64,000 nt of DNA, taken from assembly GCA_951406725.2 (NCBI GenBank), contig OX597824.1, positions 41,540,001 to 41,604,000 on the forward strand, given 5' to 3'. Of this stretch, positions 625 to 61,950 are shown piece after piece (the stretch's first letter is position 1; every line of letters starts with the position of its first letter). Origin of the DNA: Octopus vulgaris (Eukaryota). The notes under the pieces are model-generated. The model was not told where the DNA came from. It did no database searches and saw nothing but the letters and a program-made list of their open reading frames with translations. The translations under genes and the position numbers were made by a program.

Positions 625-1312
625 GACCTATGTCGTTTGCAGAATCAACAACACTACTGACAACCACAAATGCAGAATGTATGGTGAGTGGGATGAAACG
701 ATATGGCACATCGTTAGCGAATGTCCGAAATTGGCACAACGCGAATACAGAAGACAATATGACAATGTGGCAAGAATGATCCATTGGGAGCTCTGTGGAA
801 ATCACGGCCTACAAAGAGCAAAGACATTTTATGAGCAAATCCCAGAAGGAGTCTCTGAGAACGAGAATTGAAAAATCCCGTGGGATGCAATGATTCAATG
901 CGATCAGCTGACCAAACATCGGAAACCGGACATTGTTATGGCGAAAAAAGAAAAACAAAAGAAAGAACATGCATGGTAGTCAACATAGTATGTCCCGGTG
1001 ACAACAGGATCAAAAAGTAAGAAGAATGCTGAACAACTACGACGATTTGAAGTGGGAAATACGAAGGTTGTGTTTAATGAGGAGAGTAGACGTGATACCA
1101 ATAGTAATTGGCGCACTTGGAAGTATCAGCATTCAACAAGATTGGTAGAACTTTAAAGGTAGAACACCAACAGAAATCAGCATTGCTTGGAACTGGAAGA
1201 ATTCTTTGTAGGGTTCTTGAAGCATGACTAATAAACAAGTGTCATCTTAGTCTGCTGGCTTCTGGCACTTTCCATCATACCTAGCAAAATAGGCAGTGAG
1301 TTTTCATCAAGC
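625..1312 (+). mobile_element. R4/Dong-clade RLE non-LTR retrotransposon, 5'-truncated, ending in (TAA)n
   Basis: CCHC-like CRMYGEWDETIWHIVSECPKLAQREY, endonuclease motif HRKPDIV, VIPIVIGALGS and QKSALLGTGRIL; short 3' UTR runs into AATAATAAT at ~1313. Confidence 0.9.
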
Positions 1313-2223: not shown

Positions 2224-2309
<86 letters not shown>

Positions 2310-2345
2310 TACTACTACTATTACTATTATTATTATTATTATTAT

Positions 2346-14046: not shown

Positions 14047-14474
14047 AATCTATCTATGTGTGTGTGTGGGGGGTATTTGCGCGTGTGTGTGTGTATGTGC
14101 GTGTGTGTGTGTGTATGTGTGTGTGTTTGTGTGCGTGTGTGTGTGTAGCGGACTAGTTTGCTAGTTACAAGATCAGTGATTGTATGACACTGTATTTTCT
14201 ATATATTGCAAGAGAGGTCAAACTAATGTCATGCCTGGCAAACGAGTGGCCACCAGTGAAGTGATCCCATAAGATCAAAATCAAGTGATCTGGTTGTCTC
14301 TGGGCTAGGGTGGCAGGAGTTCTCTTCCGCTTGCAATAAATATCGAATGCAAAAGCGCATTGAAAACCAGCTGGAGGAGATGTCTTCCTGGAGTTGAAAT
14401 AGCAGTATAGTCTGTTCTAAAAGAACACCCACGTTAAAGTGGCGATAAGTACTATCTCATATATATATAATAAT

Positions 14475-14545
<71 letters not shown>

Positions 14546-14657
14546 GGCAATTATGCGGATAAACAAATTAGATACATCAAATATACTAAATATATTAAAT
14601 ATATTACATACGTATATTTTGCATTTCATACACTAATTAATATACCCTAATTAATAT

Positions 14658-14787
14658 TGTTACGGAACGGAATCACCCGTCGTCGCCCTCCCGAACGGCT
14701 CACACAAGTTCCGCCACGGAGCCCAAAGAGGCGGAACTTGTGTGAGCCGTTCGGGCGGGCGACGACGGGTGATTCCGTTCCGTAACA
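14658..14787. repeat. 130-bp palindrome (58-bp arms, 1 mismatch, 14-nt loop) replacing the 5' LTR
   Basis: 14658-14715 is the reverse complement of 14730-14787; both match the 3' LTR end (~17897-17971). Confidence 0.97.
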
Positions 14788-14789
14788 AC

Positions 14790-14807
14790 TGGTGTCAGAA
14801 GTGGGAT
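14790..14807 (+). promoter_or_regulatory. Primer binding site, probably tRNA-Leu
   Basis: TGGTGTCAGAAGTGGGAT 2 nt after ...TAACA; complementary to the tRNA-Leu 3' end ATCCCACTTCTGACACCA. Confidence 0.88.
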
Positions 14808-14845
14808 TGTCCTGATTGCTGCGTTTCGATCGGTTCTTTTTCGCT

Positions 14846-16783
14846 ATGGATTTGTCTGGCTGTCAGACCGGAGACGAGGAGATTTCGCTTGCTCTGATTG
14901 TGGGGATGTTAAGGGGCCAGATGGCGCAGACGGACGCGTTCATGGAAAGGATGGACGAGAGGCGACAGGGCCTGTGGGCAGATCAGCGGGAGCTTGAGGT
15001 TGCGGATGGGTCAGCTTTGAAGGATCGGTGTTGGACCGAGGATAGCGACGGTCCTGTGGGCAGAGATTGCCCGTCGAACGAAGCATCGAGGGAAACAGAT
15101 AGTGAAGGAAGTGTTGCCGAAATCTGTGATGCTGGACCGGCTGTGTTTGCGGAACCTGGGCTGGTTGCCGAAATTTGTGACGCTGTACCCAAGAAATCTT
15201 GTGATTTGGAACCCGTAGAGGTTGAAGTAACCAAAAGGCCTGTGGAAGGTGTTATGGCTGATGCTGTTGTTCCATGTCTGGAGCCCTTGGCATCTCAACC
15301 CCAGTCTCTCGGAGCTCAGGACGAAGAGCTGGCGAGGTCTGGGGTGGATGTCGCTGAATCCGAGGTTCCGGCTCTGTGTGTGATGGTCGCGGCAGGTGTT
15401 GTGCCGTGTGCGGGTCCTTTGGTGTCTGGACTCCTGTCTCTTGGGGCCCGGAGGGACTGTATGGTTCCCACTGTGGAGAGGCCACAGGCGTGGATGGACT
15501 GGCGGCCGGGCGTGTGTGTTGTGAGGCCTGCGGTACGGAAGCTGGTGAAGAAAAGGACCAGGCCCGTTGACGAGGCGAGACGGCTGCGAACGGTGGTGGG
15601 TCCACCGAGTCCAGGAAGACTGCTTCAGCGTTGGGTGAGCTTTGTGGTTGATGGTTGCTTGGGGCCGGTGGAGCCCGACAGGCAGTGCCTAGTGAAAGCT
15701 CGATTGAGGGTCGGGTGGACCCTAGTGGAAGCAGAAGCTGGTGGAGCGCTGGCTGGGTCGGCCGATCTTTTGGAAGTGGCACAGGCGATTTGCAGAAGGC
15801 AAATCGAGGAATCGTGCCAGATGGCGAACCAGTGGTGGGGCCAGTTCTGCCGATACGGCAACGCAGTGGAAGGAGATGGTGGCCCACGGATGCAGTTGAG
15901 GAAGCAGTCCGCAAGGAGTCGCTGGTGCTTTGTTGGCACCTGGGGGAGCTCTGTGTTCGATGGTTGCGTAGGGCTGGTGGAGCCCGACATGCAGTGCGGA
16001 GTAAGAGCTCAGTTGAGGGTCGGCTGGACCCTGGTGGAGGCAGAAGCTGACAGAGCGCTGGTTGGGTCGGCCGAGTTATTGAAGGCTGCGCAGGCGATTT
16101 GCAGAGGGCAAATCGTGGAACTGCGCCGGACGGTAAACCAGCGGCGGGGTCAGTTCTGCCGGTGCAGAGATGAAGTTAAGGGAGTTCGTGGTCCGCTGAT
16201 GCAGTTGCGGAAGAGGCAACTGTTGGTGAAAAGCGCAGGACGTTGGTCGCGAGGGTTGTTGGATGCTGGTCGCACGGACCTGGCAGAACGTTTCGTCGAC
16301 CAAGGCGGTTGTCGCTTGAGGAGGCAGCGAGGCCGGAGGAAGGTCCCAGTACGGCAGCGCAAGAGGAGTTATCGGCGACGGGGAACAGTGGAAAAGCGGA
16401 ATGGTCCCTGGTCGTCAGCGATAATTGCGCGGAATGGGGATGGTACAGCAAGGTGCTACGTGGGCTATAGAGCCCTGAGGAAGGTGGCCACTGTGAAGGA
16501 TTGGCCGGACCCTGCCTGTGGAAGGGATTTGAGGAACTTCCTCGGACGGTGCGCCTATTGTGGGCGGCTAGTAGGAAGCCTGGCGGCGTTGGCGGAGGTG
16601 TTACCCAAGCCGCAGAGGGAAGGTGCCAACCTGTGGCTGGTGCTGAAGTGGTTGCCGTGGGAGGTGAGACCCCCGGAGGAGGGACCACCCAGGGGGACCT
16701 CCAGTTCCTGGAGCGTCTGCTGGAGCTCGCCCTCGGAGCTGCGGGTTTCTTATGCTTTGTCGGGTCGACAAAAGCTTAGGTAG
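14846..16783 (+). CDS. 645-aa ORF of the gypsy element; degenerate pol-derived, no RT catalytic core
   Basis: First ATG of the 14816-16783 ORF. GPWSSAIIARNGDGTARCYVGYRAL (RT N-terminal block) is fused in frame to VKDWPDP..RDLRNFLGRCAYCGRLV (thumb/connection); no YxDD, RNase H or integrase; stop lies in the PPT. Confidence 0.7.
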   Translation: MDLSGCQTGDEEISLALIVGMLRGQMAQTDAFMERMDERRQGLWADQRELEVADGSALKDRCWTEDSDGPVGRDCPSNEASRETDSEGSVAEICDAGPAVFAEPGLVAEICDAVPKKSCDLEPVEVEVTKRPVEGVMADAVVPCLEPLASQPQSLGAQDEELARSGVDVAESEVPALCVMVAAGVVPCAGPLVSGLLSLGARRDCMVPTVERPQAWMDWRPGVCVVRPAVRKLVKKRTRPVDEARRLRTVVGPPSPGRLLQRWVSFVVDGCLGPVEPDRQCLVKARLRVGWTLVEAEAGGALAGSADLLEVAQAICRRQIEESCQMANQWWGQFCRYGNAVEGDGGPRMQLRKQSARSRWCFVGTWGSSVFDGCVGLVEPDMQCGVRAQLRVGWTLVEAEADRALVGSAELLKAAQAICRGQIVELRRTVNQRRGQFCRCRDEVKGVRGPLMQLRKRQLLVKSAGRWSRGLLDAGRTDLAERFVDQGGCRLRRQRGRRKVPVRQRKRSYRRRGTVEKRNGPWSSAIIARNGDGTARCYVGYRALRKVATVKDWPDPACGRDLRNFLGRCAYCGRLVGSLAALAEVLPKPQREGANLWLVLKWLPWEVRPPEEGPPRGTSSSWSVCWSSPSELRVSYALSGRQKLR

Positions 16784-16790
16784 GGGGTAG

Positions 16791-17971
16791 TGTTACGGTT
16801 GGCTGAGTGCATTTCTGGTGACCCACTTAGGAATTATGGCACCATCATGTCTGGTGAAAATGTGACAGTCTTTTGTCTAATGGAGGACTGATGGGTTTTG
16901 GAAGGACCTGTGACCTCGTGCGGTTGAGAAAAGGGTCAGGAGAATGTGAGAGAAAAGGGACAGATTAAGGGCTGAGAGCAAATAGAGATAGGGTATAAGC
17001 AGTAGGGGACGGATGGAGAGGCTAAGAGACAGCAGGCGATATAGATAGAGTAAGGAATGAGATAGCAAATAGAAAGGCTATAAGAGGGAGATGAGGGAGT
17101 GGAGGCGAGGACAGAGACGAAGTGAAGTCCTGGCAGTCGTTGAGCGGTCGTCGAGGAACACAGACGGACTCTGGAGGTCAGAGCGAGTGGATGGAACCTT
17201 GGATTTAAGGAGCAAGCGTTGGAATTCCTGGGAGCGAGCTGGGATGCGAGGAGGCCTAGGAGCAAGCGACTGGAATATGCACAGAGGGGAATTAGCAGAG
17301 TATTCAGAGGATTTGGCAGTACGGAGAGATGAGGTGCAGAATGGGACACTGGCGATTCAGTTGGGAATTAAGGTATGTGATTGTGTATTGATGCGTGTCA
17401 CGATGTAAAGAGACAGTGAAAAGAAATGAACAGTGAAAAGAACAGTCAAGGACTTGTCGATATGTCGATTGTGGTATTTATGTTCAGAATTGTGTTGATA
17501 TGTGTAGAAAAAGATTATAAAGAACTGTGAACGTTATCTGTTGATGTGATTTGGGAAAAGAACTGTGTCTTCGGACGTGTACCTTTGAAATACTGTATAT
17601 GACTTGTTGTGTCTCCGGACTGTTATATTGTTACATGCTGTTGTATTATGCTTTGATCTGTTGTATTATGCTTTGATCTGTTGTATGATGTATTGAGTAG
17701 TCACGTGCATGTCTTCCTTTAAATGTCTGCCTTAAATGTATTTGATGTGTAGCAATTGTAATTGTCGTATAAACTGTTGTTTGAATATAAGCCAGTGTTG
17801 CCAGTTGTTGCCTTGCCTCTTTGGGTTGTATCTCGGGTTGTGCCTCTGTATCTCTGTGCTGTTGAGGTTGTGGCAGTATCTATCTGTATCTCCTCTCTCC
17901 GCCTCTTTGGGTTCCGTGGCGGAACTTGTGTGAGCCGTTCGGGACGGGCGACGACGGGTGATTCCGTAACA
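16791..17971 (+). repeat. 3' LTR (1181 bp)
   Basis: Follows PPT AGGTAGGGGGTAG; TGTTACGG...CCGTAACA 8-bp terminal inverted repeat. Confidence 0.9.
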
Positions 17972-17987
17972 ATATATTTAATATATC

Positions 17988-18088
17988 TTTCGGGGTCGAT
18001 AAATTAAATACCATTTGCGTACTAGGTTCGATCGAATCGACTGGTCCACTCCATCAAAATTTCGGGCCTTGTGCCTAGAGTAGAAAAG
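17988..18088 (+). mobile_element. 5'-truncated Meta-type SINE
   Basis: CTTTCGGGGTCGATAAATTAA...GGCCTTGTGCCTAGAGTAGAAAAG, flanked by AATATAT on both sides. Confidence 0.85.
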
Positions 18089-18415
18089 AATATATTTGAT
18101 ATATTTGATGTATCTAATTTGTTTATCCACATAATTGCCTCTATACCCGCTCAAATTGATCCCCCTTATCGCTTTTCTTTACCTTGTGGATTGACCCCCT
18201 ATGAAGAGATCGGAGCTTAAGTTTGAATGCTTCAAGCACTACTAAGTGTCTTCAAAACGGAGAATCTCTGAATCGCATCTGCGAACTATACGGGTGCGCG
18301 CATACAGATACACACAAATATGCGTTTGTGTGTCTTTATGTCTGTGCTTGTCACCCCGCCCAACCGCTTGAAAACCGGTGTTGGTATGTTTATACCCCGT
18401 AATCTAGTGGTTTGG

Positions 18416-18468
<53 letters not shown>

Positions 18469-18521
18469 ACTAGTAGAATCATTTTCGGGCTGCTGCCCCC
18501 TTGACACCCAGACCACTTTCT

Positions 18522-24769: not shown

Positions 24770-24932
24770 TATAGAGAGAGAGAGATAGAGAGAGAGAGAG
24801 ATGTACTTGCATAGCGAGTGACTTGATCTGAGATCGTGTGCTGGAACGAAAACAATTGCAGCGTGGAAGGTGTTTATAAGTCATTTAAGAAACACACAAA
24901 ACCGTTAGATTCACTTCAACATTTAAATTTAA

Positions 24933-24983
24933 TTTGTCAAAATATTTTCATCGCTTTGAGACCGCGACCTGTTCACTAACAAA
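24933..24983 (-). ncRNA. Minimal type I hammerhead-like motif with G3:C8 core (GUGAACA)
   Basis: Minus strand: uuuguua GUGAACA g GUCGC-loop-GCGAU GAAA AUAU UU ugacaaa. Confidence 0.55.
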
Positions 24984-25002
24984 ATTTCGTCCTGCACGAA
25001 GT

Positions 25003-25052
25003 TTTGTCAGTGAATAGGTCGCGTCTCAAAGCGACGAAAATATTTTGACAAA
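25003..25052 (+). ncRNA. Mirror hammerhead-like motif (core GUGAAUA)
   Basis: uuuguca GUGAAUA g GUCGC gucucaaa GCGAC GAAA AUAU UU ugacaaa; perfect 7-bp stem I and 5-bp stem II. Confidence 0.55.
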
Positions 25053-25128
25053 TTAAATCTAAATGTTGAGTAAATCTAACGGTTTTGTGTGTTTCTTAAA
25101 TGACTTATAAACACATCCCACGCTGCAA

Positions 25129-25174
<46 letters not shown>

Positions 25175-58830: not shown

Positions 58831-58947
58831 AAAAGCAATAAAGATTCAAGTTAATTTAAATGAATTTACTTGAATATGGTACCTAACTTAGATGCACCAA
58901 AAAAAACTATACTGATTTAACAATACAGTAATGTGGGGTGATTATAA

Positions 58948-59432
58948 GCGAGAATGAAGCAACAAGAATGGATAGGTTTTTAGTACAATCGTTTTATACA
59001 AGGACAGGTTTTATTAAAAGTTGCAAAAATTACAGCATATAAACGTGTCCCGTACTCATCAGCTAAAATACATGTGAGTTCTCTAGACATCCTAGTGGTT
59101 GAGGCTATACTCATGAAGTAATGTAGATAATTAAGTAACATAAACAGATTTCAAAAGTTCATTAAAGTTCTTTTAAAATTCTGTGATAAGACTGTACATC
59201 ATCTTTAAAGAACTTTAATGAACTTTTGAAATCTGTTTATGTTACTTAATTATCTACATTACTTCATGAGTATAGCCTCAACCACTAGGATGTCTAGAGA
59301 ACTCACATGTATTTTAGCTGATGAGTACGGGACACGTTTATATGCTGTAATTTTTGCAACTTTTAATAAAACCTGTCCTTGTATAAATCGATTGTACTAA
59401 AAACCTATCCATTCTTGTTGCTTCATTCTCGC
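58948..59432. mobile_element. Penelope-like palindrome, 226-bp arms and 33-bp spacer
   Basis: 58948-59173 is the reverse complement of 59207-59432 (one mismatch noticed); within (TA)n-bounded block. Confidence 0.85.
59312..59402 (+). ncRNA. Type I hammerhead with extended stem II, G12 mutated; mirror copy at ~58978-59068 (-)
   Basis: UUUUAG CUGAUGA GUACGGGACA...UGUCCUUGUAU AAAU CGAUUG UA CUAAAA. Confidence 0.6.
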
Positions 59433-59468
<36 letters not shown>

Positions 59469-61284: not shown

Positions 61285-61950
61285 GCTCTAATGCTGGCAA
61301 GCAATTTGGGGGTAGGGAATAAGTCGATTACACTGACCCCCACTTATTTCATGGACTATGGAAGGATAAAAGTAAAGACGACTTTGGCGGAATTTGAACT
61401 CAGAACGTAAAGACAGACGAAACGTCACAATGCTTTTTGTCTGACATGATAACGTATCTGCTAACACGTGGTCTTAAAAAAAAATTGTTTCAAATTTTGG
61501 CACAAGGCCAACAATTTCAGGTGTGAGGGTACGGAATAAGTCGGTTGTATAGACCCCAGTACTCAAATAGAACTTATTTTATAGACTCCCGAAAAGATGG
61601 AAAGCAAAGCCGATCACGGCGGGATTTGAACTCAGAACGTAGCGACGGGTGACACGCCGTTAAGGAGTTTGCTCGGCGTGCTAAAGATTTTGCCAGCTCA
61701 CCACCTTGAAATTAACGTCTAATACCAACCACTTCCTAAGACGGCGAGCTGGCAGAATCATTAGCACCCCGGGCAAAAATGCTTAGCGTCATTTCATCTG
61801 TCTTTACGTTCTGAGTTCAAATTCAGCTGAGGTCGACTTCGCCTTTCATCCTTTTGTAGTCGTTAAATTAAATACTAGTTGAACTCTGGGGTTGATGTAA
61901 TTGATTCATCCCCACCACCGAAATTGCTGGCCCCGTGTCAAAATTTGCTT
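61285..61950. mobile_element. Meta-type SINE cluster (two minus copies, one plus copy)
   Basis: GGAATTTGAACTCAGAACGTA at ~61390 and ~61622; plus-strand head at 61743. Confidence 0.85.

Follow-up and report, generated by a model that had tools for sequence, protein, structure and literature searches.

Among retroelements, an inverted terminal arrangement is known from DIRS1, with its inverted terminal repeats, and from Penelope, with its inverted pseudo-LTRs. The marks of these elements are a tyrosine recombinase or a GIY-YIG endonuclease, and they have neither a tRNA primer-binding site (PBS) nor a polypurine tract (PPT). A hairpin that forms in the course of reverse transcription has been described for HIV-1, whose minus strong-stop DNA can fold back, prime its own synthesis and be extended by reverse transcriptase (RT) in vitro; each particle holds two RNAs (accessible part of PMC6088434). 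According to the same part of that source, the self-primed products are dead ends, they are undetected in endogenous HIV-1 particle reactions, and nucleocapsid reduces self-priming.

The locus analyzed here lies in a 64-kb stretch of DNA, which we call the window. It is a Gypsy-derived element of 3,314 bp that spans 14658-17971 and carries, as its left end, a U5 hairpin made of its own sequence. Below we describe the element, its insertion site and its family, and then weigh the routes by which such an end may have been formed.

Structure of the element and of its insertion site

Both a PBS after a CA end and a PPT before a TG-starting LTR are present in the element. The PBS-type motif (18 nt, plus strand, 14790-14807) lies 2 nt (AC) beyond the CA end, and we assign it tentatively to tRNA-Leu. 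A degenerate Gypsy polyprotein remnant, in an open frame of 655 codons, occupies 14816-16783 on the plus strand. The PPT (plus strand, 16778-16790) adjoins the start of the 3' LTR (plus strand, 16791-17971), which is 1,181 bp long, begins with TG and ends with CA, and has an 8-nt terminal inverted repeat. Two direct LTRs, on the other hand, are absent: the 5' side repeats the U5 end only. When 14300-18500 was compared with the window by BLAST, U3 and R had no 5' partner and the only matches were in U5, in agreement with a preliminary description of this DNA that had reported a 1,181-bp 3' LTR lacking a 5' counterpart.

The place of the 5' LTR is taken by a palindrome of 130 nt (14658-14787), with arms of 58 nt, one mismatch (14689/14756) and a loop of 14 nt (14716-14729). 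The left arm (minus strand, 14658-14715) is an inverted copy of the U5 end, and provides an att-like left end that starts with TG. The right arm (plus strand, 14730-14787) is a direct copy of the U5 end, with CA at its end. When the correspondence is traced base by base, the left arm, the loop and the adjoining GGCGGA are the reverse complement of the last 74 nt of the LTR (17898-17971), and the right arm is a direct copy of the last 54 nt (17918-17971) plus a 5-nt duplication. The turn of the hairpin is a stem native to the U5 of the LTR, TCCGCC/GGCGGA, which together with its 14-nt loop is found at 17898-17923 (plus strand). Of 32,298 candidate turn pairs in the LTR (loops of 3-30 nt), only two pair over six bases, and this stem is one of them. 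The loop of the hairpin, which reads on the minus strand, is inverted with respect to 17904-17917 of the 3' LTR and differs from it by one base.

The arms resemble each other more than they resemble the 3' LTR, as only 1 of their 58 positions differs between them. Both carry the 5-nt duplication, which is absent from the 3' LTR, and both lack one base of the 3' LTR at the place where they mismatch. The folding z-score of the hairpin is -19.6, and none of 200 shuffled sequences folded equally well. Mapping and sequence comparison thus bear out what had been described beforehand: a U5 palindrome of 130 bp between ATAT and the PBS, a turn at TCCGCC..GGCGGA, a loop inverted relative to the 3' LTR, and a 5-nt insertion common to both arms and missing from that LTR.

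Public reads neither confirm nor refute the structure. The check made use of Logan contigs of 4 of the 24 listed runs, with tables dominated by a high-copy repeat of the flank. In the rows listed (15 of 62 joints, 24 of 1,303 loose ends, 32 of 94,039 pieces), neither the hairpin nor an empty site nor a normal junction of LTR and PBS is bridged. In run X2, a contig matches the right flank from 18125 to 18392 with a single difference.

The retroelement interrupts a host inverted-repeat (MITE-like) element, whose left arm (14539-14606) is mirrored at 17972-17986 and 18089-18146. The self-complementary tetranucleotide ATAT flanks the retroelement at 14654-14657 and 17972-17975. By itself this match is weak because ATAT is locally common (it occurs at 6-9% of positions within 500 nt to the left and right). 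The mirror arm of the host element provides a test of its own: when the retroelement and exactly 4 nt are removed, the flanks match the mirror arm over 17 nt, while each of the other six dropped lengths in the range from 0 to 6 gives a match of 9 nt at most. This outcome supports the view, already put forward in the preliminary description, that ATAT is a true 4-bp target-site duplication (TSD).

Three nested layers can be made out across 14539-14657 and 17972-18146: the host inverted-repeat element, a very high-copy repeat tail in its right arm (17987-18091) which we label SINE-like, and the LTR element, placed where that arm begins. The window also holds a near-perfect palindrome of about 490 bp (58943-59437, 96%), flanked by TA, which looks like a fold-back MITE. 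Further long palindromes lie at 24850-25134 and 61491-61947 (91% and 69%, respectively), and the latter consists of a common dispersed repeat present twice, in inverted orientation. These palindromes resemble inverted-repeat elements and were not counted as parallels that support the hairpin.

No Pfam family was found for the 655-codon frame at E ≤ 1. Comparison with proteins gave 388 matches at E ≤ 0.001, to Gypsy-order polyproteins; among the top 9 of these 388, which were scanned for domains, 8 contain RT and RNase H, and 6 of the 9 also have an integrase core after RT/RNase H. Residues 456-596 of the frame, approximately, in its C-terminal part, align to the regions before and after the RT core but skip the core itself, and no alignment to RNase H or integrase was detected in the frame. 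Because the RT core is missing and RNase H and integrase are lacking, the element is non-autonomous and without coding capacity for its own movement. An autonomous Gypsy element was considered and rejected, as there are no intact RT, RNase H and integrase domains. On account of the related polyprotein, the PBS, the PPT and the short TSD, we classify the element as a derivative of a Ty3/Gypsy LTR retrotransposon.

The closest relatives of the frame are Octopus proteins, with 93% and 88% identity, which points to an octopus as the source of the window. The frame includes an internal tandem duplication of 273 bp (15632-15904 and 15941-16213, 79% identity). It stays open despite the loss of the RT core, RNase H and integrase, and it may be under selection, for instance for RNA stability or packaging. 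Related open frames with 88-93% identity are annotated in two Octopus species, and one of them is fused to a host death-domain/RING gene model (P0002).

Copies of the family and search for other hairpin ends

In four public read sets, the summed depth of the element interior is tens to a hundred times that of single-copy-like contigs. Such high depth indicates a multicopy family, seen under three organism codes. The family is one of Octopus. LTR length variants are many in this family (12 listed and 30 more). The copy in the window has many letters that are rare or absent in the four read sets. The summed contig depth of U3/R is 1.45-2.87 times the internal depth in all four runs, and this ratio weakly suggests that normal two-LTR copies exist in the family; the hint is weak because solo LTRs also raise the ratio and because depth is not copy number. 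Patterns of family-specific DNA had no matches in collections of metagenomes, prokaryote genomes and viral contigs.

A survey based on the PBS covered at least 123 metagenome loci and at least 126 sites besides that of the window, from which six sites with fewer than 60 nt upstream were dropped. The 18-mer of the element's PBS follows ...ACA ends in at least 120 metagenome loci. A fold-back of the last 45 nt was found in none of the 120 other PBS junctions listed, where the best score was 11 compared with 41 in the window; these junctions include none of the element's family and some tRNA-like TRIMs, and short-read contigs tend to break at palindromes. A comparable 6-bp stem is present in 13 of the 92 distinct LTR ends among the junctions listed, so the stem by itself is not rare. 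Three motifs were also sought, and were absent, in the two accessible supplement files of PMC8967140.

Several loci in the survey deserve a description of their own. L062, L072, L076 and L084, and also L048, contain tandem arrays with units of about 140-155 bp, each unit having an LTR-end plus PBS-like motif at its end; they are possibly tandem TRIMs. In 11 loci (L008, L013, L019, L021, L022, L024, L037, L097, L101, L108 and L109), the PBS motif continues into a longer tRNA-like sequence, and ARAGORN detected no tRNA in any of the 11. These loci may be TRIMs of the Helenus type (as described in the accessible part of PMC10886601). Another locus, L071, has PBS junctions in opposite orientations at 837-858 (plus strand) and 2292-2313 (minus strand), 1.4 kb apart.

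Possible origins of the hairpin

Snap-back of a self-primed minus strong-stop DNA is the best single explanation of the hairpin, and we give it an even chance of being right. If the U5 end is written as a-L-a'-b, where a and a' are the two sides of the 6-bp stem, the left end of the element can be read as b, a', L and a in inverted form, followed by b and by the PBS. A tRNA-primed minus-strand DNA would have ended some 78 nt from its primer and snapped back at the 6-bp stem, and extension would then have copied its U5 portion together with 18 nt of the tRNA. Once the tRNA was removed, the PBS tail would have annealed to a full-length minus strand from a second co-packaged RNA, in replacement of the PPT-primed strong-stop DNA. 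RT would then have completed a linear DNA with two U5-type ends, to be integrated in a concerted manner, likely by the integrase of a helper. A second RNA is needed because an intact 3' LTR must be supplied, and its participation would also permit that the arms differ from the 3' LTR. Both length differences shared by the arms are as expected if the arms came from another RNA.

The exact TG att end follows from normal primer removal and integrase processing. Integration of a DNA with two U5 ends is conceivable because U3 and the inverted U5 begin with the same 8 nt, so that the end would look normal to the integrase. In this manner, one aberrant step would give the whole structure. The turn at one of just two six-base pairings in the LTR, and the self-priming described for HIV-1, speak for the snap-back. 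Support for it comes also from the clean 4-bp TSD, as aberrant one-ended HIV integrations usually leave much larger duplications or deletions (PMC5041404, accessible part).

Folding predictions were made for the proposed intermediate of 78 nt. In the centroid fold, its 3' end is closed by the 6-bp stem (the local 30-mer has an energy of -5.8 kcal/mol), and the minimum-energy fold uses a competing stem. U5 as RNA has a z-score of 0.41. According to these models, the 6-bp stem is weak, since the minimum-energy fold favors its competitor, and U5 is not unusually structured. TATA-like motifs are found at 16994, 17079, 17516, 17768 and 17786, all more than 100 nt upstream of the stem; hence, the DNA stop was probably premature rather than set by the natural 5' end of the RNA. 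The dead-end fate of self-primed products in HIV-1, and the failure to find another hairpin among the 120 junctions listed, none of them from this family, also count against the snap-back.

The snap-back origin had been proposed in the preliminary description, and it stands as a coherent account and as the best single one. Two observations that were offered as decisive for it, the orientation of the loop and the TSD, do not decide, however, because a template switch on an integrated copy gives both alike. In the latter scenario, a 1-3-4-2 template switch would have altered a normal 5' LTR after insertion, while the chromosome was being replicated or repaired. Past the first 8 nt of U3, synthesis would have moved over to the other strand at the end of U5, run back along it for about 70 nt and switched again at the 6-bp stem, with deletion of about 1.1 kb. 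Events of this type yield an inverted repeat with an inverted spacer and make up 23% of the high-confidence human-chimp events in the accessible part of PMC5453318. A post-insertion switch keeps the TSD and gives the loop orientation observed, and a spacer that lies between perfect arms can, moreover, be flipped at a later time (PMC8604942, accessible part). Microhomologies of 8 nt and 6 nt are present at the two switch points, inserted fragments of up to 128 nt are known (accessible part of PMC7954356), and the arms are closer to each other (1/58) than to the 3' LTR; in addition, the rare letters of this copy suggest that its two LTRs may have had time to diverge. We still rank the template switch second and consider it less likely, since two aberrant switches would have been necessary, of which the first had to span about 1.17 kb and land precisely on the boundary of the LTR, and both shared length differences would have to arise in about 55 bp after insertion. 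Published events are short-range, with a median inserted fragment of 12 nt and a maximum of 128 (PMC7954356, in the same part).

Another scenario places the accident at the cDNA stage, before or during integration: either RT switched templates twice, starting from the PPT-primed plus strand, or a host polymerase extended the unintegrated U3 end on nearby element DNA. The 8-nt and 6-nt microhomologies would serve equally well here, and for HIV, aberrant ends have been described to which additional viral DNA is attached in one or the other orientation (PMC5041404, accessible part). One would expect, however, that the PBS-side arm be equal to the 3' LTR, and the actual arm differs from it by two length changes that are common to the left arm; furthermore, host-mediated joining of the second end usually occurs without a short clean duplication (same part of PMC5041404). 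We consider the cDNA-stage route unlikely. An assembly or library artefact, in the form of a fold-back chimera or a misjoin at the repeat end, seems quite improbable. The repeat is high-copy and the genome is rich in microsatellites, none of the 32 contig pieces listed (of 94,039) runs across the hairpin, and the 20 runs in which part of the stretch occurs each contain less than half of its words. Yet the arms have private differences from the 3' LTR and one mutual mismatch, the TSD and the host-mirror continuity are exact, and the open state of the adjoining 2-kb frame suggests few indel errors. A fusion of two insertions in opposite orientations, by later deletion at the 6-nt stem, would produce the same sequence order, and ATAT is locally common; nevertheless, the flanks rejoin the mirror arm with an exact 4-nt duplication and no host DNA has apparently been lost, which points to a single insertion and makes the fusion barely conceivable.

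Finally, the whole family, or one subfamily of it, might normally carry the hairpin end. The preliminary description had contemplated a recurrent, inverted-end class of LTR elements, and this part of it finds no backing in the data: a second example did not appear among the 120 junctions listed (none of them from the element's family), and the depth of U3/R above the internal depth in the four runs leans, weakly given that solo LTRs also raise it, toward two-LTR copies. Without U3 and the 5' R, a copy has no promoter and cannot undergo the first strand transfer. If the standard cycle applies, unaided copying in the hairpin form would not occur, and we regard such a class as highly improbable. 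The hairpin copy is predicted to be a dead end and not the founder of a class because it lacks the U3 promoter and the 5' R. In all, it is probably a rare aberrant copy, apparently one-off, rather than a new class.

The significance of the hairpin depends on its origin. If reverse transcription produced it, the copy is a genomic fossil of a self-primed strong-stop DNA that completed the cycle, and the integrase of an LTR retrotransposon accepts two U5 ends in vivo. A broader proposal is that in this family self-primed strong-stop DNA is repeatedly rescued in vivo as plus-strand primer and that integrase inserts the resulting DNAs with two U5 ends. We find this rather unlikely; were it true, read-through from a host promoter would give arms of 58 bp with a much stronger tendency to fold back, and additional hairpin-ended copies would arise from packaging of such an RNA together with a normal one, with the loop flipping in each round. 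Copies with such ends would be missed by LTR finders, which need two direct repeats. If a later template switch was the cause, the hairpin is a scar of ordinary mutation, borne by a dead element.

Comparison with known systems

We liken the element to a LARD that moved in trans. An element of the DIRS or Penelope type, with inverted ends, was considered and rejected: PBS, PPT, TSD and Gypsy-type relatives are present, and nothing points to a tyrosine recombinase or a GIY-YIG endonuclease. The hairpin site of the fungal GalEa elements (PMC5445492, accessible part) replaces the PBS and is a different thing, and PMC12789967, in its accessible part, concerns other matters than this structure. In the literature searched, with subscription journals largely outside it, we found no description of a hairpin-ended copy of this kind.

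Non-autonomous, TRIM-like derivatives of Ty3/Gypsy elements (accessible part of PMC10886601) share with the element the PBS, the PPT, an LTR of the TG..CA type, the 4-bp TSD, the absence of functional RT, RNase H and integrase, and the existence of many copies. The element departs from TRIMs, which are shorter than 1 kb, in its length of 3.3 kb, in its long, open, degenerate frame and in the U5 hairpin that stands for the 5' LTR. A classification as TRIM was therefore discarded, as 3,314 bp cannot be reconciled with a definition of less than 1,000 bp with two LTRs (same part of PMC10886601).

Mutations of type 1-3-4-2 (PMC5453318, PMC8604942 and PMC7954356, accessible parts) are alike in that an inverted repeat with an inverted spacer arises from a short existing stem. 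They are short-range, whereas here about 1.1 kb would have been lost and one of the switches would fall on the LTR boundary. Aberrant one-ended proviruses of HIV and ASLV, as described in the accessible part of PMC5041404, resemble the element in having one normal end and another that is joined to extra viral DNA in either orientation. Such proviruses usually carry large duplications or deletions of host DNA; in contrast, the element has two att-like ends and a 4-bp TSD.

The likeness with cTAR self-priming in HIV-1 (PMC6088434, accessible part) lies in the fold-back of the 3' end of the minus-strand DNA and its extension by RT into a hairpin. In HIV-1, the reaction takes place at the natural 3' end, is a dead end in vitro and is suppressed by nucleocapsid. 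For the element, in contrast, the proposal involves a premature stop inside U5, extension through the primer, and rescue of the product into an integrated copy.
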